IMG/VR virus record: IMGVR_UViG_2529293015_000004
Span: 1 to 18,657 of that record
DNA length: 18,657 bases
Origin: a virus
Lineage: Duplodnaviria; Heunggongvirae; Uroviricota; Caudoviricetes
Direction: 5' to 3' (one strand)
This document shows, piece after piece, positions 92 to 16,260 of the stretch; the first letter of the stretch is position 1, and each line of letters opens with the position of its first letter. The translations under genes and the position numbers were made by a program. The notes under the pieces are model-generated. The model saw nothing but the letters and a program-made list of their open reading frames with translations. It ran no database searches and was not told the origin of the DNA.

Positions 92-96
92 ATTAT

Positions 97-114
97 GCCC
101 GGCATCAACCGGGC
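97..114. terminator. GC hairpin (gcccgg-catcaa-ccgggc) between convergent gene ends; candidate bidirectional terminator
   Basis: Perfect 6-bp stem with 6-nt loop; A/T-rich flanks on both sides. Confidence 0.35.
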
Positions 115-123
115 ATTCTTCCA

Positions 124-1236
124 TTATTCAGCCGCCACCGGTTTTAACAAGCCAGCATCGAGCAGTTTACGCGTCAACCACTGCTGGCCTTTACCCGTTA
201 ATTGAGGCGTCAACCGTATCTGGTAGCCATCTTCATCATCCAGCACCACTTCTTTCACCGTGAAATACCCCGCGGTGATGTACTGCTGGAACGGCACATT
301 TTTACGTCCGCCGGACGCAATCAGGATGCCGTTCTCCCGTAACCAGGCAAACAGCGCGTTTTGCTTAAGTCCAACAACCTTTGCAAAATTCCCAATCAGG
401 ATCCCTTTAGCTACTGATACCCGGTCGGCAAAATCGACTTTAGGAGCGGCGGCCACCAGCTGCTGATTTAGCTGGTGGGCTTTCTGTTCCAGAAGCTGCT
501 TTTGTTCAGCCAGTTCGGCAGCCAGGCGCAGAGCTTCTGGAAGCGTCTGGGGGATTGCAACCGGTTGCTGTTCTTTTTGCCGGAAGTAGCTGTCTTCCAG
601 TTTTTCAAAGAATGCCCATGCTTCATTTGTGTCCACGATCTTAGACATGCGTGCAGCGCCGCGCTCTGTCCAGAGTGTAAGGCTTCTGGCGTTCTTACCA
701 ACAGAGTAACTTCCGGTTACTCTGTTCTTAAATTCTCTTAATTTTAAACCAGTTAGAAGAAAGTAATGCTTACCTTCTTCAAAGCGGTCAAGGTTGCGAG
801 ACAAATTGTTACGAATATTGGCTTCATCGACCCCATACCCTCTAGCAAGAGTTTCGGTTGTCACGACACGTACTCCCTGCCATTCCAGAACGGGAATTTC
901 ATCCGGCTGATTCTGAACAACCACCAGTTCCGATTCCTGAACTGAAGGTGCATAAATTTTTTCTGATTTAACGTTAGTTGCTTTCATTCTGTGTGCCTCC
1001 TTGCGTGCTTCGGCTGCGACGGTTGCGTAATTCAGATGCCCCTGTTCGAGCAGGTATTCGCGGATATCAGACAGCAGGATACGGTGAACCGCGTTCTTGT
1101 CCTTTCTCCGGTAAAGTTGTTTGGTGATCATGAAGTAGTTGGCAATAACGCCAGGTATATCCCTGGTACTGATACAGGCAGTGTGCTGTTCAATTGCCTC
1201 GATCATCTCTTCACGGGTAACTAACGATGTTCTCAT
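124..1236 (-). CDS. ant: Phage antirepressor (370 aa), KilAC-type C-terminal domain; Ant1-like
   Basis: 370-aa ORF; C-terminal region (...NVPFQQYITAGYFTVKEV...KGQQWL) resembles the antirepressor KilAC domain; central DNA-binding-like region; start ATG overlaps the stop of the upstream 73-codon gene (ATGA); size matches P1 Ant1 as recalled. Confidence 0.6.
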   Translation of the reverse strand: MRTSLVTREEMIEAIEQHTACISTRDIPGVIANYFMITKQLYRRKDKNAVHRILLSDIREYLLEQGHLNYATVAAEARKEAHRMKATNVKSEKIYAPSVQESELVVVQNQPDEIPVLEWQGVRVVTTETLARGYGVDEANIRNNLSRNLDRFEEGKHYFLLTGLKLREFKNRVTGSYSVGKNARSLTLWTERGAARMSKIVDTNEAWAFFEKLEDSYFRQKEQQPVAIPQTLPEALRLAAELAEQKQLLEQKAHQLNQQLVAAAPKVDFADRVSVAKGILIGNFAKVVGLKQNALFAWLRENGILIASGGRKNVPFQQYITAGYFTVKEVVLDDEDGYQIRLTPQLTGKGQQWLTRKLLDAGLLKPVAAE

Positions 1237-1454
1237 AGTCCCTCCTGAGCAGAAGCGTTAACAGGGAGGCACCAGTAACTGAGAGAATTGCGTGAATCAG
1301 TGGAAAAACGGGCAGAGAAAATACATGGGGCGTCAGGAAGCTGAGAACGTGCCTCATCTTCTGTCGGTGCAATAACGAAGTGATAGTGACGTTTTTGGCA
1401 GGAGTAAAAGCGCCAGATAAATTCAGGATGAGCAGGGGTAGGGATAGTAGCCAC
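1233..1454 (-). CDS. icd: Small protein (73 codons, GTG start) translationally coupled to ant; Icd-like by size and position
   Basis: GTG start 8 nt downstream of AGGAGG; stop overlaps the ant start; 73 codons matches P1 Icd as recalled. An alternative 81-codon TTG-start frame (1211-1456) overlaps, so the frame choice is not certain. Confidence 0.4.
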   Translation of the reverse strand: MATIPTPAHPEFIWRFYSCQKRHYHFVIAPTEDEARSQLPDAPCIFSARFSTDSRNSLSYWCLPVNASAQEGL

Positions 1455-1479
1455 AATGGCAGCCTCCTTTTGCTAATTT

Positions 1480-1570
1480 AAGGAGCTACCGCGTGAGGTC
1501 TCAATCTCAATGGCGGTAGCACTGACTGGGTTGAGACTACCGGCGCAAAAGGGAACCGGCCTGCCTTTCG
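1480..1570 (-). ncRNA. Structured leader upstream of icd/ant with antisense elements; candidate c4-like antisense RNA
   Basis: Nested inverted repeats (gctaccgc 1485-1492 / gcggtagc 1513-1520; ggtctcaatc 1495-1504 / ttgagac 1531-1537); 1545-1566 (gcaaaagggaaccggcctgcc) is near-complementary, in the transcript, to the icd ribosome-binding region (1460-1475); a second direct copy of ggtctcaatc lies at 1687-1696. Boundaries are approximate. Confidence 0.3.
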
Positions 1571-1639
1571 GCAGCCCAGCCAGCACTACCATTGATCTCT
1601 GAGCTAAACGCTACGTATGGCTGTGCGATGGCATGACAC

Positions 1640-1663
1640 AAAAAAAAGACGCTTTTGGCGTCT
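1640..1663 (-). terminator. Rho-independent terminator downstream of pacB
   Basis: On the minus strand: stem agacgc/gcgtct with 5-nt loop, followed by a run of 8 U (complement of A8 at 1640-1647). Confidence 0.5.
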
Positions 1664-1794
1664 GTGTCGCCTTTTGCATTATCCGGGGTCTCAATCCCGG
1701 CACCCATTTTAATGAGGTGCCTGATAAGCATAAACCGAAAATGCCTCAAGGCGCAAGAGGTCAGGTTCAATGTAACATCGGCAGTTAAAAAACA

Positions 1795-1811
1795 CAATTT
1801 ATTAGAGCAAA
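1795..1811 (-). promoter_or_regulatory. C1-type operator-like site (15/17 to ATTGCTCTAATAAATTT) at the pacB stop, upstream of the antirepressor module
   Basis: Plus strand reads caatttattagagcaaa, which is the reverse complement of the consensus with two edge mismatches. Confidence 0.45.
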
Positions 1812-1814
1812 TAT

Positions 1815-3299
1815 TCATTCATTAAGCCATGCCAGAGCTTCATCAACCTGCGCTTCGTCTTCGACGCTAAGCACTTCATCCTGGGGAACATAATCCGCCA
1901 GCATAGCGAAACAATATGTATCCCAATGGTCTGGTGAGTGCAGGTTGAGTTTTTTCTTCATATCCTCCTTACTCATCACCTTCCATTGACCTGCGGAGTT
2001 AATCCCTACAGGGATTTTCGACGCTTCCTCAATAGTTTCATTACCCTTATCCAGTCTCATACGACCAGATTTTACGGCCTCTGCGGCTTGAACGTTGGCA
2101 TAAGCACGTTTATCAAAGTACAGGCTCTTATCTTCACGGCTATGCATCTTTTTACCCCAGCGTATACGCTGTACGGTAATACCATAATACTCGTACATCA
2201 GATCCGCCGTTGCTTTACCCAGGCCATCGCCGTCTATCGCTATGGTGATATTTGGGAATCGCTCAGGATTACATTCTGCGAAAATTTTGGCGGCAAGCTG
2301 CGTTTCTGTAACGTCTGTGTATTCCAGCATTCGATAGTTGATTACACGGCGTTTATTTCGCTGGCCGGACACCATCATGATATTGATAACGGACTTATCC
2401 CGTCCCGTACCACCAGCAACGTCCACACATGCAAGCCAGCCCCATCCTTTGGCAATCTTGACTTTCCGCCGCGTTGCGCGTTCAACCTCATCACGTCCAA
2501 GAAGGAAGCCATCCTGTGATTTAGGGAATAGGCCGCGTACCTTAATCATGTACATAGGGTTATCACGCCCGCCGTACTCCGCCAGCTTCATTTTGATAAA
2601 TGCTGGCGTTACCAGCGGTGATTCCTCACTGTTAAGCGTGATCGCCGTATAAACGCCATCAGGGTTACCAGGACGCTTGGCCAGTTTATGGTGTGTATCG
2701 TAGAAATAGCCGCTTGGGCGTGTAGGCTGTGACAGCAATAAGATGCGGTTATCCTGTCCAGTAAGAGCACCGGTGATGATACCGAAAGCTCTATCACTGA
2801 CACCGGAGGCTTCATCGATAATATACAGAAGATGATCTGCGTGTTCACCGGCGAGAGCTTCTTCACTTCCCAGACGAAAGCCCTTCGGTACTACAGTCCA
2901 TACACCTTTACCAGTAACCTCATAGAAAGCGGTTTCTGTCAGAACAAAATAATCAGCAAGCCATGGGAAACGGCTGGTGGCAGTAGCCCAGTTTATCTTG
3001 ATGTACTTGAATATACCGGTCATTACCTGCTGAATTTTGTTCGCAACGATAATAGCGCGGGCACCGGGATACATGATTATGAACAACATGATCATGATAG
3101 AAGTCATGTCTGATTTCCCGGTACCGTGACCAGACGAAACAGATGTCTTGCTACCCTGTTCCTGCACAGACTCAATAATCAGATCCTGCTGCCAGGTAGG
3201 TGTTTTGCCGAACAAAACATCAGCGGCCGCAATCCAGTCATAACGATATAGCGCCACCAGCTCGCGCCAACGTGGATCCGTTACGCAACTTCTGGCCAT
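1815..3299 (-). CDS. pacB: Terminase large subunit (PacB-like, 494 aa)
   Basis: 494-aa ORF immediately downstream of and overlapping pacA (ATGA at 3299); position and size match P1 PacB as recalled; no terminase motifs were individually verified. Confidence 0.8.
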
Positions 3300-4492
3300 T
3301 AATCATCATCCCCGTATAGCTTGCGGGTAACTTCTTCGTCTTCCTCCTCGTCTTCGTCCAAGTCTTGTTCCAGCCATGGGTCGTTTGATACACCTTCAGT
3401 ATCAACATCTCCATAACCGCCTGTATCAACGATATCGGCGATTTCTTCCCTACGCTGCTCAATCCACAATGCGGCATCGGCGCGGCGGTTGGCGGCCCGT
3501 TCTCGCGCAACTTTGTCCAGATCTTCAAGAGAAGGGCCACCGACGGCTGTTTGCCTTTCCTCATCATCGGTATTTGTCTTAGGAGCACGCAGATCGGCTT
3601 TGATTTGCTCCAGCATCAGGGGCGGCACTTTTCCACCATGCGCCTCGATGAATTCAGCTGCTTCCAGCACTGACCAGTTATTTTCACGCTTTCGTTCGTA
3701 TGCCAGCTTAACAATGCCAGCTTGCCCCATAGACAAAGCGTGCTTTTCCGCCTCCCGGCTTTCTTTTCGATAGTTATTCCGGATGCTGTAAATGGTGTTG
3801 ATCAGGCTGCTTATCTGCGCGGAACAGCTGTTTAGCATGCTCGCGATACGGTATTCAGGCGGAGTACCTTCTTCATCGTCTTTTTGCTGATCGCGCATTT
3901 CCTGCACCAGGCGAATACACGTATCCCTGGCGTTCTCCAGCATAAGGAGATGAGAAAGAGACTTTTCAAGAAGAGTGGTTTCCAGAACATCGGCCCCGGA
4001 CCGACGCAACATAGCGCGCGCGGCCTTCCGCGCTTCAACGTTATCTATCAGGTAATCGCCAGCTTCGAATTCAAAGCGTTCACCATCATCATCCAGGGTG
4101 TCGCGTTCCAGGCGATCACGTAAGGTCCGGTGGGCGCGGGTGATCACGTCATGATCATCTGAACGATCATTTATGCGCTTATTTTGGCGCTTCGCATTCT
4201 CGACTGCGGCACTGACAACGGCATTAACTCTCTGTTTTTCCGCTATTTCAGCCGCAATATGATCACCTGCATGTTGATCATTAGAGTGATCAATGATCAT
4301 GCTTTTTAGTGGCTTCCTGACTGGCTTATTTGGCTTGCGGCTGTCCGCAGTCCTAGTGTCTTCTTTGAAGGCACGGAGATAACGACGTGCGGTATTAGGG
4401 TTAAGATTAAACTCGGCGGCATACTGTGCGATGGTGTAACCACCATCTCGCGCCAGGCGAGCAAAATTCTTCTTGTGATCGTCCCAGGTCAC
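3299..4492 (-). CDS. pacA: Terminase small / pac-recognition subunit (PacA-like, 397 aa)
   Basis: 397-aa ORF with an N-terminal HTH-like segment ([21 protein letters not shown]) and acidic C-terminus; contains the pac-like hexamer clusters internally; size matches P1 PacA as recalled. Confidence 0.75.
4141..4299. other. pac-like packaging site: seven TGATCA/GATC hexamers in clusters of 3 (4141-4170) and 4 (4260-4299)
   Basis: Hexamers at 4141, 4152 and 4164 on one side and 4260, 4275, 4287 and 4294 on the other, about 90 bp apart, inside pacA; the span (~159 bp) and 3+4 arrangement match the described P1 pac site. Confidence 0.6.
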
Positions 4493-7151: not shown

Positions 7152-8714
7152 ATGAAAATGACAAGTATTCAACAACGTGCAGAGCTTCATCGTCAAATCT
7201 GGCAAATTGCTAACGATGTCAGGGGTTCGGTCGATGGATGGGATTTTAAGCAATACGTTCTGGGCGCACTTTTCTACCGTTTTATCAGCGAAAATTTTTC
7301 CAGCTATATTGAAGCCGGTGATGACAGTATCTGTTATGCGAAACTGGATGACAGCGTAATTACTGATGACATTAAAGACGATGCCATCAAAACCAAAGGC
7401 TACTTCATCTATCCAAGCCAGCTTTTCTGCAACGTAGCTGCGAAAGCAAATACCAATGACAGACTGAATGCAGATTTAAACAGTATCTTCGTTGCTATCG
7501 AAAGTTCTGCTTACGGTTATCCTTCAGAAGCTGACATCAAAGGTTTGTTTGCTGATTTCGATACCACCAGTAACCGCCTGGGTAACACCGTTAAAGATAA
7601 AAATGCCCGCCTGGCTGCGGTTCTGAAAGGGGTTGAAGGGTTAAAACTTGGTGACTTCAACGAACATCAGATTGACCTGTTCGGTGATGCCTATGAGTTC
7701 CTGATTTCTAACTATGCGGCAAATGCCGGTAAGTCAGGCGGTGAGTTCTTTACACCGCAGCACGTCTCTAAGCTGATTGCACAACTGGCTATGCACGGGC
7801 AGACCAGCGTTAACAAAATCTACGACCCGGCAGCGGGTTCCGGCTCACTGTTGTTGCAGGCGAAAAAACAGTTTGATAACCACATCATCGAAGAAGGCTT
7901 TTTCGGTCAGGAAATCAACCATACGACCTATAACCTGGCGCGTATGAACATGTTTTTGCACAATATCAACTACGACAAGTTTGATATCAAGCTGGGTAAT
8001 ACACTGACTGAGCCGCACTTCAGAGATGAAAAACCGTTTGACGCCATCGTATCTAACCCACCGTATTCGGTGAAATGGATTGGCAGCGATGACCCGACGC
8101 TGATTAACGATGAACGTTTTGCCCCGGCTGGCGTTCTGGCCCCCAAATCCAAAGCTGACTTTGCGTTTGTACTACATGCGCTGAACTATCTTTCGGCCAA
8201 AGGTCGTGCTGCGATTGTCTGCTTCCCGGGTATTTTTTACCGTGGCGGCGCAGAGCAGAAAATCCGTCAGTATCTGGTCGATAATAACTATGTCGAAACC
8301 ATAATTTCACTGGCACCGAACCTGTTCTTTGGCACCACCATTGCAGTAAACATTCTGGTGCTGTCTAAGCATAAAACGGATACCAAAGTTCAGTTTATTG
8401 ACGCCAGCGAACTGTTCAAAAAAGAGACTAACAACAATATCCTGACCGACGCCCATATCGAACAGATTATGCAGGTATTTGCCAGCAAGGAAGATGTTGC
8501 TCATCTGGCGAAATCTGTCGCGTTTGAAGCCGTTGTAGCGAATGACTATAACCTGTCGGTGAGCAGTTATGTGGAAGTGAAAGATAACCGCGAAATTATC
8601 GATATTGCTGAGCTGAATGCGGAACTGAAAACCACGGTCAGCAAAATCGACCAGTTGCGTAAAGATATTGATGCGATTGTAGCTGAAATTGAAGGCTGCG
8701 AGGTGCAGAAATGA
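7152..8714 (+). CDS. hsdM: Type I R-M DNA methyltransferase subunit HsdM (520 aa)
   Basis: AdoMet motif [10 protein letters not shown] and catalytic NPPY (VSNPPYS); stop overlaps the hsdS start (ATGA at 8711-8714). Confidence 0.9.
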
Positions 8715-9913
8715 GCGAGTTAAGTTATCTGGAAAAATTGCTGGATGGGATTGAGGTTGAGTGGAAAACACTAGGCAGTATAGCTGAACTAAAGCGAGGC
8801 ACATCAATTACAAAAAAAGATGTTATTGATGGAACCATCCCCGTAGTCGCTGGCGGACGTACACCAGCTTATTATCATAATACTAGTAATCGCGACGGAC
8901 AAACAATTGTTATCGCAGGTTCTGGTGCGTATGCGGGATTCGTTAGTTGGTGGGAGGAACCAATTTTCGTATCGGATGCATTTACTGTAAAACCTCATAA
9001 TATTTTGTTACCACGATATTGCTATCATTTTTTGATGAATATGCAACAACAACTCCATGAGTTTAAGAGTGGTGGTGGTGTTCCGCATGTTTATCCACGT
9101 GATGTATCACCTATTTTGATACCAATCCCCTGCCCGGATACCCCAGAAAAATCCCTTGCCATCCAGTCTGAAATCGTGCGGATTCTGGATAAATTTACTG
9201 CACTTACCGCTGAGCTTACCGCTGAGCTTAACATGCGTAAAAAACAGTACAACTACTATCGTGACCAGTTGTTGAGTTTTAAAGAGGGTGAGGTTGAGTG
9301 GAAGACTTTGGGGGAAATTGGAGATTTTACATATGGATATGCAGCCAAAGCCATGGATTCAGGAGATGCCCGTTTCGTGAGAATTACTGACATAAATAAA
9401 GACGGGAAGCTATCGAAAGAAAACCCAATGTACGTTGAATTAAATGAGGAAAATGAGAAATATACCTTAGACAAAAATGATTTACTCATGGCAAGAACTG
9501 GGGCAACCTTTGGTAAAACAATGATTTTTGAAGAAGATTATCCAGCAGTATACGCTGGTTTTTTAATAAAGTTGAACCTAAATAAAACGATTATTAATGC
9601 CAAATATTACTGGCACTTTGCACAAAGTGATTTTTTTTGGGAACAGGCTAATAAATTAGTATCTGGTGGTGGGCAACCACAGTTTAATGCTAATGCACTG
9701 AAACAAGTCAGAGTACCTATTCCATACCCATCTCACCCTCAAAAATCTTTAGACGAACAGGGGCGTATTGTGGATATTCTGGATAAGTTTGATGCAATCG
9801 CAGCTTCCATCACCGAAGGTCTCCCGCGTGAAATCGAGTTGCGCCAGAAACAATACGAGTACTATCGTGATTTACTGTTCAGTTTCCCAAAACCTGAAAC
9901 TGTCAGTAATTAA
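8711..9913 (+). CDS. hsdS: Type I R-M specificity subunit HsdS (400 aa), two target-recognition domains
   Basis: Duplicated conserved regions (ILDKF...[15 protein letters not shown] and ILDKF...[15 protein letters not shown]); repeated EVEWKTLG at the start of each half; central TAELTAEL repeat. Confidence 0.85.
9203..9226 (+). repeat. Two tandem copies of 12-bp unit CTTACCGCTGAG (plus a 4-nt partial third copy to 9230) in the hsdS central conserved region, encoding LTAE-LTAE
   Basis: Read directly: cttaccgctgag cttaccgctgag ctta. Confidence 0.85.
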
Positions 9914-10034
9914 TTGACCGTTGCTACCGACCGGGCCACCTTAACATCCGGTCTGTATATAGACTATTTTTTACGCGCCGGAAGTCACTCTTAACGCCCT
10001 TCCGGCCCTTGCCAGACGGCACAAAGGATGCGCT

Positions 10035-13000
10035 ATGACTCATCAGACACACACCATTGCTGAATCCAATAACTTTATCGTCCTTGATAAGTACATCAAA
10101 GCTGAGCAAACAGGCGACAGCTATCAGAGCGAATCGGACCTGGAACGTGAACTAATTCAGGACCTGCGGAATCAGGGCTATGAATTTATACCCGTAAAAT
10201 CACAGTCAGCGATGCTGGCCAACGTTCGGGAACAGCTTCAGAACCTCAATGGTGTGGTGTTTAATGACAGCGAGTGGCGGCGTTTCACGGAGCAATATCT
10301 GGACAACCCGAGTGATGGTATTCTGGATAAAACCCGTAAAATCCATATCGACTATATCTGCGACTTTATTTTTGACGACGGGCGTCTTGAGAACATCTAT
10401 CTGATCGATAAAAAGAATCTCATGCGCAACAAAGTGCAGATTATCCAGCAGTTTGAACAGGCAGGTTCTCACGCTAACCGTTATGACGTAACTATCCTGG
10501 TTAATGGCTTGCCTCTGGTACAAATCGAACTGAAAAAGCGCGGCGTGGCGATTCGTGAGGCTTTCAACCAGATACATCGTTACAGTAAAGAGAGTTTTAA
10601 CAGCGAAAATTCCCTGTTTAAATATCTGCAACTGTTTGTCATTTCTAATGGCACCGATACCCGTTACTTTGCCAACACCACAAAGCGCGATAAAAATAGT
10701 TTTGACTTCACCATGAACTGGGCGAAATCAGACAACACGCTGATTAAAGACCTCAACGACTTTACCGCTACCTTTTTCCAGAAACATACTCTGCTGAATG
10801 TTCTGGTGAACTACAGCGTGTTTGACAGTAGTCAGACGCTACTGGTGATGCGACCGTACCAGATTGCAGCTACCGAACGAATCTTATGGAAAATCAACAG
10901 CTCCTATAAAGCGAAAAACTGGTCTAACCCCGAAAGCGGTGGCTTTATCTGGCACACCACTGGTTCCGGTAAAACACTGACCAGCTTTAAAGCCGCGCGT
11001 CTGGCAACTGAACTGGACTTTATTGATAAAGTCTTCTTCGTGGTCGACAGGAAAGACCTCGATTACCAGACGATGAAGGAATATCAGCGTTTTTCGCCAG
11101 ATAGTGTTAACGGCTCGGAAAATACAGCAGGTCTTAAACGAAATCTGGATAAGGACGATAACAAAATTATCGTCACCACTATTCAGAAACTTAATAACCT
11201 GATGAAAGCAGAAAGCGACCTGCCTGTATACAATCAGCAAGTGGTGTTTATATTTGATGAATGCCACCGCAGCCAGTTTGGAGAAGCGCAGAAAAACCTG
11301 AAGAAGAAATTCAAACGCTATTATCAGTTTGGTTTTACCGGCACACCTATTTTCCCGGAAAACGCTTTAGGCTCAGAAACAACCGCCAGCGTATTTGGTC
11401 GTGAATTGCATTCGTATGTAATTACCGATGCGATTCGTGACGAAAAAGTGCTCAAATTCAAGGTGGACTACAACGATGTGCGGCCACAGTTTAAGTCTTT
11501 AGAGACAGAAACTGACGAGAAAAAACTGAGTGCGGCTGAAAATCAGCAGGCGTTTCTTCATCCCATGCGTATTCAGGAAATCACGCAATATATCCTGAAC
11601 AACTTCCGCCAGAAAACCCACCGTACTTTCCCTGGTTCCAAAGGTTTTAATGCCATGCTGGCAGTAAGCAGCGTGGATGCTGCAAAAGCCTATTATGCGA
11701 CGTTTAAACGGTTACAAGAGGAAGCCGCTAATAAATCGGCTACCTATAAACCGCTGCGTATTGCGACAATCTTCTCCTTTGCCGCCAATGAAGAACAAAA
11801 TGCCATTGGTGAAATTTCCGATGAAACTTTTGATACCAGCGCAATGGACAGCAGTGCTAAAGAGTTTCTGGACGCTGCAATTCGTGAATATAACAGCCAT
11901 TTTAAAACTAACTTTAGCACCGACAGTAACGGTTTTCAGAACTACTATCGTGATTTAGCCCAGCGGGTTAAAAATCAGGATATCGATCTGCTAATTGTCG
12001 TGGGGATGTTCTTAACCGGCTTCGATGCTCCAACATTGAACACGCTATTCGTCGATAAAAACTTACGTTATCACGGCCTGATGCAGGCATTTTCCCGCAC
12101 TAACCGCATTTATGACGCCACTAAAACCTTCGGTAATATCGTCACTTTCCGGGATCTGGAACGCTCAACTATTGATGCCATAACGCTGTTTGGTGACAAA
12201 AACACCAAAAATGTGGTGTTAGAAAAGAGTTATACAGAGTATATGGAAGGCTTTACTGATGCTGCTACAGGTGAAGCTAAACGCGGCTTCATGACAGTAG
12301 TTTCAGAACTGGAACAACGGTTCCCTGACCCTACCAGTATTGAAAGTGAAAAAGAGAAGAAAGACTTCGTTAAACTGTTTGGCGAATACCTGCGTGCCGA
12401 GAACATCCTGCAAAACTATGATGAATTTGCCACGCTAAAAGCCCTGCAACAAATCGATCTTAGCGATCCTGTTGCGGTAGAAAAATTCAAAGCAGAACAT
12501 TATGTGGATGATGAAAAGTTCGCTGAATTGCAAACAATTCGTCTCCCTGCTGATCGCAAGATTCAGGATTATCGTTCTGCCTATAACGATATTCGCGACT
12601 GGCAGCGCCGTGAGAAAGAAGCTGAGAAAAAAGAGAAATCAACCACTGACTGGGATGACGTAGTTTTTGAGGTCGATTTGCTGAAGTCTCAGGAAATAAA
12701 CCTGGATTATATCCTTGGACTGATTTTCGAACACAACAGACAAAATAAAGGCAAGGGCGAAATGATCGAAGAGGTCAAACGCTTAATTCGTTCAAGTCTA
12801 GGGAACCGTGCTAAAGAGGGCCTGGTGGTCGATTTTATTCAGCAAACGAACCTGGATGATTTACCGGACAAAGCCAGCATCATTGACGCATTCTTTACGT
12901 TTGCTCAACGCGAACAGAAACGTGAAGCAGAAGCATTGATAAAAGAAGAAAATCTCAATGAAGAGGCGGCGAAACGCTATATTCGCACATCTTTAAAACG

Positions 13001-13151
13001 CGAATACGCCACCGAAAATGGTACAGGATTAAATGATACATTACCAAAACTTAGTCCGTTAAATCCGCAATATAAAACGAAAAAACAGACGGTTTTCCAG
13101 AAAATCGTCTCGTTTATTGAGAAGTTTAAAGGCGTAGGCGGAAAAATATAG
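10035..13151 (+). CDS. hsdR: Type I R-M restriction subunit HsdR (1038 aa)
   Basis: N-terminal PD-(D/E)xK-like region ([19 protein letters not shown]); helicase motifs [32 protein letters not shown]; separated from hsdS by 121 bp, consistent with its own promoter. Confidence 0.9.
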
Positions 13152-13399: not shown

Positions 13400-13416
13400 A
13401 GATTTATTAGGGCAAT
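13400..13416 (-). promoter_or_regulatory. C1-type operator-like site (15/17) overlapping the stop of the HAD-like gene, upstream of the small peptide ORF
   Basis: Plus strand agatttattagggcaat; on the minus strand ATTGCCCTAATAAATCT, followed 17 bp later by TAAAAC (possible -10). Confidence 0.4.
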
Positions 13417-13994: not shown

Positions 13995-15257
13995 TCAGCG
14001 AACATAAATAGTGCCGCCGTTCTCTTTTTCCCATGCATCGCTACGTGCATAGCAAACATCGAGAAGTCTTCTTGCCGCTGTTTCCTCTAAACCCAATTCG
14101 ACAACCAACTGCTCATGACGGCGGGTAACCACATCAAACAGGGTATGCAGCCCTTTAGCTGCCAGATCATCAATAAATTCCGGTTCGAACGGCAGCTCTG
14201 CCTCTGCCAACATAACCTCTTGCGCCCACTCAACTCGACGGACCAGTTCCGGGCGGCGGCTTTCCATCTCTTTACAGATCAATTCATGGAAGAACTCTAC
14301 CCAACCTTCCGGCTGGAACTCGCGGAAAATGGCCAACGGCTGGAAGTTTGGCATCAACCATTCGTTGATCCGGATATCAATGGCATAGCCCATGTCGCAG
14401 CAGAACTGATAAGCAAAGTCCAGCTTAGAAACGATATAAGGACGCTCGTTATTGAACTCTTTAGGCGATGAGATCCCATAAGCCAGGAGGCGCGGGAAGA
14501 AGGAGATTTGCCCTAACGTCGGATGAAGTTTGCTTGCAGGGAAACGGCGCTCAGTAATGCCATACATTTCCTTCTTGAGCGTCGCAAATTTGGCATTCTC
14601 ATTAACCAGCGCGGTAACCTCTGCTTTTTTATTAGCAAATGCCACGCGCGCCTCGCTTGCATCTTTAATAGTTTTTTTGAGCTGTTGGTTAAGGTCGGCG
14701 ACCTGCTTACGCAGTTCCTGTCGCTCGCTTTTAGCTTTGTTATAGCGTTTCTCAAGGTTAAAAGGATCAAGTTTCATGATCTCTTTATATTGAGATTTTA
14801 GCGTTGAAATCTGTGAGTTCCGCAGTTCAACCATCGCGGTCATTTCATTGAGTTTTGTTTCCAGCTCAATGCTTATACGTTCGGCATTATCAGCACGCTG
14901 GTTGGCGTCATGCGTCGCATCGTCGATCGCGTCCTGTTGCTGGCGTTTCAAATGTTCAATTTCCAGCTGAAGCTCTTCAATTTCTTTACCCTTCAGACCG
15001 AGATCCAACTGCATATTTTCAGCTGCATCTACCAGGGAGTTATGGCTATCAGCTTCTGCGTTATAAACATCAATAAGCTGTGCGTGAAGCATCTCCGCTG
15101 ACTGAACCGCATTATCAAAAAAACGTGCTGTGAGGTCATCACAACTAACGCGGCGTTGCGCGGCCCGGATGTTCTGGATAATGGCCGGGATACCGGCATT
15201 CAGGACATCAGGGATACATACATTTTCGATTGATTGGTTTTGTGCTGAAGTGCTCAT
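13995..15257 (-). CDS. Hypothetical protein (420 aa): long central coiled-coil-like region and a C-terminal domain of unknown function
   Basis: Long ORF translationally coupled to the upstream 72-aa gene (TGAaATG); heptad-like charged segments at roughly residues 80-220; no recognisable catalytic motif. Confidence 0.6.
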   Translation of the reverse strand: MSTSAQNQSIENVCIPDVLNAGIPAIIQNIRAAQRRVSCDDLTARFFDNAVQSAEMLHAQLIDVYNAEADSHNSLVDAAENMQLDLGLKGKEIEELQLEIEHLKRQQQDAIDDATHDANQRADNAERISIELETKLNEMTAMVELRNSQISTLKSQYKEIMKLDPFNLEKRYNKAKSERQELRKQVADLNQQLKKTIKDASEARVAFANKKAEVTALVNENAKFATLKKEMYGITERRFPASKLHPTLGQISFFPRLLAYGISSPKEFNNERPYIVSKLDFAYQFCCDMGYAIDIRINEWLMPNFQPLAIFREFQPEGWVEFFHELICKEMESRRPELVRRVEWAQEVMLAEAELPFEPEFIDDLAAKGLHTLFDVVTRRHEQLVVELGLEETAARRLLDVCYARSDAWEKENGGTIYVR

Positions 15258-15258
15258 T

Positions 15259-15477
15259 TCAAAGTTCCGTATTAGCTTGTGCTTCGGTCATTTTTCCTAA
15301 GTATGAAGGAGGAAGGACTACGCAATTTGTATCCAGTCCCTCACCTATGGCAGCCTGTAAAATTCTGGCTAAGGTGAGTCTCTTGTTGCGATACCTGGTG
15401 ATGACATGCCTGATACCGCCGGTCGGCGTAACAAAGGCGATCAGCCAGTAGTGATATTTCCGTCGGAATGGCCACAT
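15259..15477 (-). CDS. Hypothetical small protein (72 aa), first gene of an operator-controlled operon
   Basis: ATG preceded by AAGGTG at 5 nt; operator-like site immediately upstream; stop adjacent to the start of the 420-aa gene. Confidence 0.5.
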   Translation of the reverse strand: MWPFRRKYHYWLIAFVTPTGGIRHVITRYRNKRLTLARILQAAIGEGLDTNCVVLPPSYLGKMTEAQANTEL

Positions 15478-15490
15478 AGTGCACCTTGTA

Positions 15491-15507
15491 GATTGCTCTA
15501 ATAAAAA
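15491..15507 (+). promoter_or_regulatory. C1-type operator-like site (14/17: attgctctaataaaaaa)
   Basis: Directly upstream of the Shine-Dalgarno/ATG of the 72-aa gene; forms an inverted pair with the site at 15541-15557. Confidence 0.45.
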
Positions 15508-15527
15508 ACGTGATGAGTGTACATCAC
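15502..15527 (-). terminator. Rho-independent terminator (stem cgtgatg/catcacg, 6-nt loop, U6) ending the upstream operon
   Basis: On the minus strand the 7-bp perfect stem is followed by a run of 6 U; lies between the two operator-like sites. Confidence 0.5.
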
Positions 15528-15540
15528 GCTTTAAAAATAT

Positions 15541-15557
15541 GGAATTATTAGAGCAAT
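15541..15557 (-). promoter_or_regulatory. C1-type operator-like site (14/17), inverted relative to 15491-15507
   Basis: Plus strand ggaattattagagcaat; on the minus strand ATTGCTCTAATAATTCC, then a 17-bp spacer and TAAAGC. Confidence 0.45.
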
Positions 15558-15558
15558 A

Positions 15559-16260
15559 TTATTCTGATTCTCGCTCAAAAAATGAGCTGATAAGGGGAAG
15601 CCAATCCTCTGACACTTCGCGAGGTCGCGGTTTGCCGTGGAAAAAGATTATTCGGCAGTCTTTTGGTAATGCCCCATTCCCCCTGGAGTAACGCGCGCTC
15701 GCATATTTTGAACCAGGTTCCACAACATCGGCCTTGTAACTTACAAACCATCCTGGATACAGATCCTGAAATGCTGGTGTATCATCGCCCATAACCTTTC
15801 GTAAGAACCCCTGGTCACCCCAACACTCAGTAGTGACACAACGAGAAATCCAACCTTCCGGATCTTGCCAGAATGAACTCCAGATATGCGCTTTAACACT
15901 ATTTGGTATCCACAGGGCACCGCTGCCACGATATTGTGGATGGTAAAAATCCCTAAGCATGGTGAAGCTGGTTGGTGGATGCTCTAGGATTGGGCGTATA
16001 TCACCGGCAATAACCGTGTCCAAATCCAGATAGAACAGATCATCGGTTATATCCGGTCGGAACAACTCGATTTTCGCCCACCAGCCACGGCACTTTTGCC
16101 ACTGGTTGATCAATGGGACAACTTTGACGCCAGGTACATGTAAACGCTTCAGGTCTGTCAGGCAAATAATTTCATAGCCTTTTGGCAGTTGATTAACCAG
16201 CCACTGCACATCGGAAGCGTTATAGTCACCACCAGAGCGAAAAACTAAAGCAATCTTCAT
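15559..16260 (-). CDS. Putative GT-A fold glycosyltransferase-like protein (233 aa)
   Basis: DxD motif in a hydrophobic context ([13 protein letters not shown]) and a C-terminal FHGKPRP resembling the GT8 H-x-G-x-x-KPW region; ATGA coupling to the upstream phosphatase gene. Confidence 0.5.

Follow-up and report, generated by a model that had tools for sequence, protein, structure and literature searches.

An immunity I-type C4 antisense module with its own pairing specificity between pacB and c1 of a P1-like phage-plasmid

The region at 1455-1815 of the window (the whole 18,657-nt stretch analysed, from IMG/VR record IMGVR_UViG_2529293015_000004), together with the icd and ant genes that follow it, is a real P1-type "immunity I" (immI) switch, of the kind that keeps an antirepressor from being made by means of a small antisense RNA. 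The module is an ordinary member of the well-described C4 RNA family, placed at a second site and equipped with its own pairing specificity. We put at roughly 85% the probability that it is a complete immI-type switch for the antirepressor, belongs to a P1-like phage-plasmid of the RCS47/JL22 type and would work as proposed below. The basis in this analysis is family membership, anatomy, complementarity with covariation, orthogonal duplex energies and protein homology.

The gene list and the Rfam matches place the whole module on the minus strand, and a plus-strand reading was ruled out, every RNA match and every gene lying on the other strand. In the minus-strand direction, the pacB stop codon (1815) is followed by the operator, an IsrK-like RNA, C4, the icd-like gene, ant and the convergent c1 gene (Table 1). 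An earlier, sequence-only reading had placed the module beside the packaging genes, and it does lie directly after pacB, between that gene and c1. The same reading recognised the logic of P1 immI and proposed a comparison of the two loci. In that comparison the operator, promoter, a1/b1 leader, c4, a2/b2, icd and ant all fall in the order annotated in NC_005856, and the proteins are homologous: Icd is 81% identical to P1 Icd (NCBIfam phage_ICD_like, 49.8 bits versus a cut-off of 25), and Ant is 57% identical to P1 Ant1.

The c4-like antisense region that had been proposed upstream of icd-ant is borne out by the covariance-model search and the RNA folding suggested as checks. The Rfam C4 model is matched over its full length (1-87) with 75 bits, the gathering score being 45. 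The fold has an energy of -46.4 kcal/mol (z = -5.6), and none of 200 shuffles was as stable. The minimum-free-energy fold is the family structure, with a long closing stem, two hairpins and a single strand 3' of hairpin 2. By homology to the annotated 77-nt C4 of P1, the mature RNA probably spans about 1590..1512.

The leader upstream of C4 matches a second RNA family. Rfam isrK (RF01394) is matched over its full model (1-77) with 57.9 bits against a gathering score of 50, and in its predicted fold the RNA has the two 5' hairpins and the Rho-independent terminator of that family. The terminator, a stem-loop at 1663..1647 followed by a run of eight U, forms the 3' end of the IsrK-like RNA and is the sole good intrinsic terminator within the leader. 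The model for the corresponding P1 element, c4-a1b1 (RF03163), does not reach its cut-off on the window leader (22.6 bits versus 46.7, at 1733..1680, E = 0.0016). The P1 leader gives the mirror pattern, with 51 bits for c4-a1b1 and 35 bits for isrK, and the Gifsy-1 leader lies above the cut-offs of both models. By sequence, the window leader is the homologue of P1 a1/b1 in place and parts, yet of IsrK class, and Rfam IsrK and P1 a1/b1 are, judged by these matches, one element, so that the experiments on Gifsy-1 IsrK bear on P1-type immunity. The upstream repeat copies lie within this separate, terminated small RNA, which had gone unrecognised in the sequence-only reading. That reading had also begun the leader at a pacB terminator; there is none between the pacB stop codon (1815) and the operator (1811). 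A terminator-like site at 1910..1894, considered for that role, lies inside pacB and is weak.

Table 1. Features of the module in the window, listed in minus-strand order
Feature	Position	Strand	Description
C1-operator-like site	1795..1811	(-)	TTTGCTCTAATAAATTG; 3 nt past pacB stop codon; predicted
Putative promoter, operator-overlapped	1769..1797	(-)	-35 TTGTGT 1797..1792; 17-nt spacer; extended -10 TGtTACATT (hexamer 1774..1769)
Putative second promoter	1727..1756	(-)	-35 TTGCGC 1756..1751; 18-nt spacer; -10 TATGCT 1732..1727
IsrK-type leader RNA	1642..1720	(-)	two hairpins, linker, intrinsic terminator
a1 target/decoy site	1687..1696	(-)	GAUUGAGACC; loop of IsrK-like hairpin 2; exact complement of C4 a'
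b1 target/decoy site	1670..1677	(-)	GCAAAAGG; single-stranded linker before terminator; exact complement of C4 b'
C4 antisense RNA gene	1509..1596	(-)	Rfam RF01695 model span
b' recognition sequence	1545..1552	(-)	CCUUUUGC; loop of C4 hairpin 2
a' recognition sequence	1531..1537	(-)	GUCUCAA; single strand between hairpin 2 and C4 closing stem
a2 target site	1497..1506	(-)	GAUUGAGACC; 3 nt past C4 model end; exact complement of a'; predicted mostly unpaired
b2 target	1463..1473	(-)	GCAAAAGG at 1473..1466, overlapping icd Shine-Dalgarno AAGGAGG 1469..1463; exact complement of b'
icd-like gene	1233..1454	(-)	73 aa; GTG start; stop overlaps ant start (ATGA)
ant gene	124..1236	(-)	370 aa; Ant1-like
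GC-rich hairpin	95..116		between convergent ant (stop 124) and c1 (stop 91); read from sequence

The heart of the switch is the complementarity of two C4 segments to sites on both sides of the C4 gene. A sequence able to pair with the icd ribosome-binding region had been described only loosely; it is C4 b', the exact complement of b2. On the plus strand, the GCAAAAGG within C4 (1545-1552) has its complement, CCTTTTGC, at both 1466-1473 and 1670-1677, and the complements are exact at all four sites (7 nt, or 10 nt with flanks, and 8 nt). The inverted element ttgagac is present at 1531-1537, as had been reported. Of the two direct copies of ggtctcaatc said to flank it, the one at 1687-1696 stands; the other had been given as 1495-1504 and lies 2 nt away, at 1497-1506, and the window holds exactly these two. 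The count of this 10-mer is not significant by itself, being equalled in 48 of 200 shuffles in a one-mismatch search, and the full pattern was therefore tested by shuffling the flanks. Two separate C4 segments that are each complementary to both flanks arose in only 4 of 20,000 dinucleotide shuffles.

The pairing is also conserved. Loss of the complementarity in related elements had been named as an observation that would speak against a c4-like region; what is found instead is compensatory change at all three sites of each set. Three-site complementarity is kept in 14 diverse modules, including those of P1, P7, D6, RCS47, phiP27, Ss-VASD, APSE-7 and P4, and in 67 of the 68 IMG/VR loci that share the window's C4 scaffold. 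Those loci carry two b' and two a' alleles in all four combinations, with a1 covarying with a' and a2, and b1 with b' and b2. Across 21 distinct pacB-context leaders, only the four allele-defining bases vary within the 88-nt C4 gene. The RCS47 copy has another b allele, in which CCUUUGAC is paired with GUCAAAGG. Such matched changes indicate continued selection on pairing.

This evidence also bears on the notion that the module is an inactive leftover of recombination, a redundant duplicate of immI without present function. Related plasmids do carry a canonical immI as well, and in NZ_CP101271.1 the antirepressor of the third module is truncated. Nevertheless, the parts in the window are intact (both RNAs above their Rfam cut-offs, full-length icd and ant, a conserved internal start), the junction from pacB to ant recurs in at least 307 PLSDB plasmids, and selection on pairing has evidently continued in the matched loci. 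An inert duplicate seems very improbable.

Relative to the immI modules of P1 and P7, the window module shares a great deal: the order of operator, promoters, a1/b1, c4, a2/b2, icd and ant1/ant2; the C4 Rfam family; the position of b2 on the icd ribosome-binding site; the ATGA overlap of icd and ant; the internal Ant2 start; and a C1 operator (predicted in the window) that overlaps the upstream promoter. The differences are of several kinds. First, the window module lies between pacB and c1 rather than between sim and kilA/repL. Second, its leader belongs to the IsrK and not to the c4-a1b1 class. Third, its recognition sequences (a'/b') are GUCUCAA/CCUUUUGC, in contrast to CUGUCAA/CACUAAC in P1 and CUGCUAA/CACAAUC in P7.

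The third difference is reflected in predicted duplex energies. Cognate duplexes come to about -12 and -9 kcal/mol, whereas window-type RNAs against P1-, P7- and third-type (mod2) targets give -1 to -6 kcal/mol. On these calculations, the module is predicted to be orthogonal to modules of the P1, P7 and third types, and, because its a' and b' are unlike those of P1, P7 and other modules in the same plasmids, it should form an independent, heteroimmune channel. Between alternative alleles of the same scaffold the separation is less sharp: window a' against the non-cognate a2 (GUUCCAA/UUGGAAC) still reaches a predicted -7.8 kcal/mol, through G-U pairs.

The start of the module carries likely control elements for transcription. 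The operator-like site that had been noted at 1795-1811 lies on the minus strand and matches the P1 C1 operator consensus ATTGCTCTAATAAATTT at 15 of 17 positions. The window holds four such sites against an expectation of 0.14, a number that none of 200 shuffles attained. The site aligns with Oc4/Op51 of P1, and every IMG/VR locus of the pacB context keeps it, about 214 nt ahead of the C4 start; C1 would be expected to bind there, at 1811..1795. The promoters are less conspicuous. A consensus promoter scan left 1769..1797 below its threshold, and both candidates are weak consensus matches that the scan missed. The first nevertheless aligns hexamer for hexamer with the annotated P2c4 (P51a) promoter of P1, of which it may be the counterpart. 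The second matches P1c4 (P51b) in position and would start an RNA at about 1720, which is where the IsrK-like RNA begins; its -10 hexamer ends 7 nt ahead of the first isrK model position, and P4 shows a matching geometry between an annotated -10 (408-413) and its IsrK-like element (isrK at 420-497). TATCAG, which aligns to P1 P51b, was considered as the -10 and set aside: it lacks the conserved final T, and TATGCT, 6 nt upstream, suits the IsrK start better, although both are putative.

The working that we infer for the window module, from promoter use and processing to C1 binding, repression in vivo and a decoy role, would be as follows. Transcription would begin just past pacB, at the operator-overlapped promoter and probably also at the second promoter some 45 nt downstream. 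Most transcripts would stop at the intrinsic terminator, yielding an IsrK-like RNA of about 80 nt that carries a1 and b1, and those that read through would carry c4, a2/b2, icd and ant. C4 would then be excised from the read-through RNA; in P1, RNase P performs this excision and releases an RNA of 77 nt. The freed C4 would pair in trans with a2 and b2 on the mRNA, through its b' loop and its a' 3' single strand. Because b2 overlaps the icd ribosome-binding site, icd would stay untranslated; in P1, an untranslated icd permits premature termination before ant. With ant coupled to icd through the ATGA overlap, Ant1/Ant2, the C1 antirepressor, would therefore not be made. The a1 and b1 sites on the short RNA would offer C4 a second, competing partner and, by analogy with Gifsy-1 IsrK, the short IsrK-like RNA likely acts as an anti-C4 decoy able to switch ant on. 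For P1, this account draws on the notes of the NC_005856 record, on PMC8546580 and on general background. According to the NC_005856 notes, C4 at a2/b2 represses translation of icd-ant, and icd is apparently required for ant expression.

It is less clear, however, that C4 alone keeps the mRNA silent. The icd Shine-Dalgarno, 8 nt ahead of the GTG at 1454, is predicted to be paired even without C4 (unpaired probability 0 to 0.1), and b2 itself, by the same prediction, is caught in a local hairpin, with its 5' half displayed in the loop. C4 may therefore not be the sole block, and an activating step may be needed. An activating circuit is described for Gifsy-1 of Salmonella. The IsrK-orf45(STnc1160)-AnrP locus of that prophage shares with the window an IsrK RNA with a terminator, then a C4-family RNA (at orf45/STnc1160), an antirepressor gene and a1/b1-type sites in IsrK that are complementary to the C4 part. 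There, read-through of the terminator makes the mRNA, and the short form of IsrK switches on its translation in trans, raising that of the antirepressor gene anrP more than 100-fold (PMC4825925). This action of the short form, together with Hfq association, is a Gifsy-1 result; for the window, it is the complementarity of a1/b1 to C4 that has been demonstrated.

The window could work mainly as an activator circuit of this kind rather than by trans-repression through C4. The read-through RNA would be translationally closed in cis, the short IsrK-like RNA would pair with a' and b' and open C4, and translation of a small ORF overlapping C4 would unlock icd and ant by coupling. The window has a candidate for such an ORF, of 39 codons, with its start at 1592 in C4 and its stop at 1475..1473 in the loop of the Shine-Dalgarno hairpin, and the leader is indeed an IsrK-family RNA with a terminator. 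But the AUG of this ORF falls within the C4 closing stem, and family members do not share the frame: it has 14 codons in P1 and 15 in APSE-7, and elsewhere it is fused in frame to the next gene. Further, the window has a P1-type icd, which Gifsy-1 lacks; orf45 overlaps the C4-like RNA and is coupled directly to anrP. Gifsy-1, whose control is described as trans-activation by short IsrK, also has no C1 operator and is a chromosomal lambdoid prophage. Finally, a precursor closed in cis, in which the C4 5' strand pairs with the icd start region, is almost equal in predicted energy to one with the native C4 fold (-69.4 versus -69.0 kcal/mol); this closed form was set aside, and its pairing also looked poorly conserved in the start regions of RCS47 and D6. 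We regard predominant activation of this type as possible, though doubtful, and it could coexist with repression by C4. The 39-aa ORF (1592..1473) matches Pfam PF10554 (Ash) at 29.1 bits (cut-off 26), the match being confined to profile positions 49-87. As the ORF lies over the C4 RNA and its frame is not kept across the C4 family, it most likely reflects conservation of the RNA and not a real "ash family" gene, but orf45, its counterpart in Gifsy-1, does undergo translation (PMC4825925).

A second alternative to C4 repression of icd translation comes from the satellite phage P4, in which control is transcriptional. P4 shares the pair of IsrK-like and C4-family RNAs, and its processed RNA, CI, has one complement upstream and one downstream; CI pairs with seqA and seqC and thereby terminates transcription (PMC4825925). 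By analogy, C4 might cause premature termination on the nascent transcript in the window, and the overlap of b2 with the ribosome-binding site would be secondary. In favour of this, the a1 and b1 sites stand directly 5' of the terminator hairpin. Against it, b2 sits on the icd Shine-Dalgarno in exactly the P1 arrangement, the P1 record (NC_005856) describes repression of translation, the icd homologue with its ATGA coupling to ant is the P1 design, and a terminator scan found no terminator-like site between a2/b2 and ant. P4 itself (CI; seqA, seqB, seqC) differs in that CI prematurely terminates transcription of replication genes, neither an antirepressor nor a C1 operator is present, and the "ash" frame continues across the region. 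Thus, control of the P4 kind seems unlikely here, and repression of icd translation by C4 remains the preferred reading.

The module also occurs in closer relatives. RCS47 and JL22 carry the window's very module after pacB. D6 has an IsrK-like/C4/icd leader that is 92% identical and of the same a'/b' allele, but there the module is found close to ref, its antirepressor is of the Rha/Roi type and its operator of the D6 type. The presence of ant and two short ORFs in the interval from pacB to c1 has been noted (PMC6906374), as has a second c4 and icd region in a D6-like plasmid (PMC6799933), whereas the JL22 paper (PMC9603915) leaves ant, icd and immunity unmentioned. In this literature on the modules (PMC6906374, PMC6799933, PMC9603915), the RNA parts at the pacB site are not described.

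The related complete phage-plasmids also hold a canonical immI, so that RCS47 and JL22 have two modules each, and one plasmid has three C4 modules. We tentatively suggest, at somewhat short of even odds, that P1-like phage-plasmids run several orthogonal C4 "locks" at once (immI, pacB-c1 and sometimes a third). The pacB-c1 lock would come in four interchangeable key types, made by matched changes at six interleaved sites, an extension that we hold with the same reserve. Equally tentative is its last element, that the IsrK-like RNA made from the same promoter would be the decoy of C4 and set the threshold for escape of the antirepressor, whose gene lies beside c1 and which would inactivate the c1 product. 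If this is true, the locus would be a multi-channel system that recognises and counter-induces related co-infecting plasmids, and P1 a1/b1, Gifsy-1 IsrK and P4 seqA would form one class of anti-antisense RNA.

Such circuits matter because of the elements that carry them. In E. coli and Salmonella, resistance genes are commonly carried by P1-like phage-plasmids, whose immunity circuits govern plasmid stability, coexistence and mutual exclusion. The module described here adds a second C1-antirepressor switch beside c1, apparently independent of the canonical one. Since plasmids that are nearly identical in other respects differ in the specificity of this module, it should help decide superinfection, induction and displacement among P1-like elements. 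In addition, two lines of work that are usually cited apart, on the P1 a1/b1 sites (termed "putative") and on the IsrK small RNA of Salmonella Gifsy-1, are now linked as concerning one element, and trans-activation of antirepressor synthesis by IsrK becomes a testable hypothesis for P1-type immunity.

The antirepressor is a further point at which the window differs from P1. The N-terminus and the KilAC C-terminus of Ant are conserved relative to P1 Ant1, but its middle is an ORF6N domain, of which Pfam finds none in P1 Ant1; the target of the protein could therefore differ from C1. An internal start of Ant2 type lies at 987 with AAGGAGG ahead of it, in a context nearly identical to that of P1 ant2. 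At the far end of the module, the hairpin at 95..116 is probably a two-way terminator for ant and c1.

The leader between pacB and the icd-like gene carries a module of the same kind as P1 immI, the immunity operon in which the C4 antisense RNA blocks icd and hence the antirepressor ant. A C4 antisense RNA is called there at 75 bits (Rfam gathering score 45). Its predicted fold (-46.4 kcal/mol, z = -5.6), a long closing stem enclosing two hairpins, is the structure of the family. Upstream lies an IsrK-like RNA (57.9 bits against a gathering score of 50), predicted to form two hairpins, then a linker and then a terminator. Two exposed C4 segments, a' and b', have complements both upstream within the IsrK-like RNA (a1 and b1) and downstream (a2 and b2). 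The annotated P1 operon (NC_005856) runs Oc4/Op51, P2c4/P51a, P1c4/P51b, a1, b1, c4, a2, b2, icd, ant1/ant2, and the window has the same layout. The two regions align, icd being the best-conserved part: Icd is 81% identical to its P1 counterpart, and Ant is 57% identical to Ant1, with the N terminus and KilAC C terminus conserved and an ORF6N domain between them. Conservation extends to the internal start of Ant2 with its Shine-Dalgarno sequence. Family match, fold and element order agree with the immI-like logic proposed in the sequence-only reading.

Positions of the module, its neighbors and related sites (window coordinates unless a plasmid is named)
Feature	Position	Strand	Remark
pacA	4492..3299	-	
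pacB	3299..1815	-	upstream neighbor of module
Putative promoter	-35 1797..1792, -10 1774..1769	-	operator-overlapped; aligns with P1 P51a
Putative second promoter	-10 1732..1727	-	predicted RNA start ~1720
IsrK-like RNA	1720..1642	-	
a1			GAUUGAGACC; loop of IsrK-like hairpin 2
b1			GCAAAAGG; linker of IsrK-like RNA
Intrinsic terminator	1663..1647 + U-run	-	sole convincing one
C4 RNA	1596..1509	-	
b'			CCUUUUGC; loop of C4 hairpin 2
a'			GUCUCAA; single strand between C4 hairpin 2 and closing stem
a2	1506..1497	-	3 nt downstream of C4
b2	1473..1466	-	overlaps AAGGAGG, 8 nt before icd GTG
icd-like	1454..1233	-	GTG start
ant	1236..124	-	
c1	last 91 bases in window	+	convergent to ant
C1-operator-like site	13400-13416	-	2-3 mismatches to consensus
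C1-operator-like site	15492-15508	+	2-3 mismatches to consensus
C1-operator-like site	15541-15557	-	2-3 mismatches to consensus
NZ_CP101271.1 C4 genes	14898-14983 of one segment; 8157-8242, 15348-15435 of another	-	

That reading holds with small corrections to its observations, and its interpretation is supported. The inverted element ttgagac is at 1531-1537 as described. The window holds exactly two copies of ggtctcaatc, one at 1687-1696 and the other at 1497-1506, 2 bases away from the 1495-1504 first given. GCAAAAGG (plus strand, 1545-1552) is the sequence said to pair at the icd ribosome-binding region; its complement, CCTTTTGC, lies on the icd Shine-Dalgarno at 1466-1473 and occurs a second time at 1670-1677. 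At 1795-1811 the operator-like site has the minus-strand sequence TTTGCTCTAATAAATTG, matching the P1 C1 operator consensus at 15 of 17 positions. No terminator was found for pacB, which had been credited with one; the operator starts 3 nt past the pacB stop codon. C1-operator-like sites number four in the window, with 0.14 expected, and two of the three others point towards each other a short way upstream of the gene at 15559..16260. The 10-mer repeat by itself is not significant against chance; the full pattern, a pair of C4 segments that each have complements in both flanks, appeared in only 4 of 20,000 dinucleotide-shuffled versions of the flanks.

Covariation supports the pairing. Across 14 modules (P1, P7, two in D6, RCS47, 673R5, phiP27, Ss-VASD, APSE-7, P4 and three in NZ_CP101271.1), a' and b' vary, and nearly all have exact complements, 7 nt or longer, upstream and downstream at matching relative positions. 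At that length, only a1 was found in 673R5, and b1 was not found in phiP27 or Ss-VASD. A scan of IMG/VR with the invariant part of the window C4 scaffold gave 70 loci, 68 with enough flank, and in 67 of these a1, b1, a2 and b2 all match C4 exactly. The complementarity is conserved in related elements; a lack of such conservation is what the sequence-only reading had named as refuting it. Here b' is CCUUUUGC or CCUUUGAC and a' is GUCUCAA or GUUCCAA, in all four combinations, the pacB site included; in the 21 distinct leaders from pacB contexts, the four allele bases are the only variable positions of the 88-nt C4 gene. Because the sites are interleaved on the RNA (a1, b1, b', a', a2, b2), a single crossover could not produce these combinations, an argument that matched sets are under selection. 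About one-third of the loci have the pacB context with a C1 operator and the others a D6-type operator or none; the RNA cassette thus moves between phage types. The allelic difference, two bases per site, is the same size as that between P1 and P7. The heteroimmunity of P1 and P7 rests on c4-target differences. It has also been ascribed to minor nucleotide differences in ImmI (PMC6906374). The analysis thus establishes the anatomy, the family membership, and the complementarity with its covariation.

A second relationship concerns the upstream RNA. In the P1 leader, c4-a1b1 scores 51 bits and isrK, at the same place, a sub-threshold 35 bits; the window leader has the reverse pattern, with c4-a1b1 at 22.6 bits. 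Salmonella Gifsy-1, from which IsrK was first defined, has above-threshold hits for both families at a single place. Judged by these family matches, IsrK and P1 a1/b1 are one element. Gifsy-1 also has a C4-family RNA (69 bits) 25 nt downstream of IsrK, the whole locus spanning 34131-34329 (minus strand), at the position where orf45 and the processed RNA STnc1160 have been placed (PMC4825925). The published Gifsy-1 IsrK circuit is therefore an immI-type module without icd. The same study likened IsrK to P4 seqA and STnc1160 to P4 CI (PMC4825925). The pair also occurs in D6, phiP27, Ss-VASD, APSE-7 and P4, and for APSE-7 the two RNAs are already annotated in the deposited records. Shigella phage Ss-VASD additionally has an sRNA-Xcc1 family RNA (79.6 bits, 2524-2607, plus strand) just upstream of a second antirepressor gene and ~0.9 kb downstream of its IsrK/C4 pair.

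How might such a module act? The P1 mechanism of C4, icd and Ant is reportedly also described by Citron and Schuster (1990/1992), Biere et al. (1992) and Hartmann et al. (1995). In P1, C4 is processed out of the operon transcript and pairs with a2/b2, stopping icd translation and thereby preventing expression of ant, whose products Ant1/Ant2 inactivate C1 (NC_005856 notes; PMC8546580). In the window, most transcripts would stop at the terminator and yield the IsrK-like RNA, and read-through would yield c4-icd-ant. In the short RNA, a1/b1 are no less exposed than a2/b2, and this RNA should therefore compete for C4. Its Gifsy-1 homologue, short IsrK, acts in trans to increase antirepressor translation by more than 100-fold (PMC4825925). 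A hairpin and a small ORF suggest an extra control layer. The icd Shine-Dalgarno is predicted to lie in a local hairpin whose loop displays the 5' half of b2 and holds the stop codon (UAG, 1475..1473) of a 39-codon ORF (1473-1592, minus strand; "ash family protein" in RefSeq plasmids) that starts within C4. Other family members have a short version of this frame or one that runs into the following gene; the ORF is thus not conserved across the family and is a lead only.

The RNA family, operon logic and protein families are already known, and a C4 module in a P1-like element will not surprise a specialist. An ant gene and two short ORFs between pacB and c1 were noted in pTZ20_1P and RCS47 (PMC6906374), as was a second c4 and icd region in a D6-like plasmid (PMC6799933). 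We found no published account of the RNA elements in the pacB-c1 module, of its allelic series or of the equivalence of IsrK and P1 a1/b1. The IsrK link and the picture of several modules and alleles seem the most worthwhile parts.

Several genomes (RCS47, JL22, D6 and 673R5) carry a canonical P1-type c4-icd plus a second module. NZ_CP101271.1 has three C4 genes, at the canonical site (P7 type), near mat and between pacB and c1, the last in a module 99.9% identical to the window. Each comes with a separate icd and a separate a1/b1 or IsrK-type element upstream, and the b' sequences all differ (CACAAUC, CAUGUAC and CCUUUUGC); in the middle module the antirepressor is truncated. Predicted cognate duplexes reach about -12 (b) and -9 kcal/mol (a), and cross-duplexes of window-type RNAs with P1-, P7- and third-type (near mat) targets -1 to -6 kcal/mol; energies for the two alternative alleles assume the window's flanking bases.

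By sequence identity, the window is part of an RCS47/JL22-type P1-like phage-plasmid. Over 801 bases around the module, it shares 95-98% identity with phages RCS47 and JL22 and 99.9% with several E. coli IncY plasmids. A single match spans 80% or more of the pacB-to-ant stretch in at least 307 PLSDB records, and 158 plasmids match at least 80% of the full 18.6 kb. Minus-strand order is phd-doc, a DUF968 gene, lpa, pacA, pacB, the module, icd-like and ant. NZ_CP101271.1, a related plasmid, has an S24 peptidase gene and others in place of 7152-13151 (plus strand). The convergent ant and c1 genes have 33 nt between their stop codons, and a GC-rich hairpin there (atgcccgg/ccgggcat, 95-116) probably terminates transcription from both sides and so limits antisense transcription into c1.

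Three further features were seen around the RNAs. First, the leader upstream of where the IsrK-like RNA starts holds, at 1750-1760 (minus strand), a sequence close to the C4 b' region (CCUCUUGCGCC versus CCUUUUGCGCC); only transcripts of the putative operator-proximal promoter would carry it, and in the predicted leader fold this stretch pairs with the b1 region. Second, the closing stem of C4 has a 3' strand (GCUACCGC, 1513-1520) with a perfect downstream partner, GCGGUAGC, at 1485-1492, a pairing that would place a2 in a hairpin loop; P4, Ss-VASD and 673R5 have the equivalent in different sequence. Third, the C4 5' strand (1585-1594) is predicted to pair alternatively with the icd start region (1454-1463), and this precursor fold and the native one have equal predicted energy.
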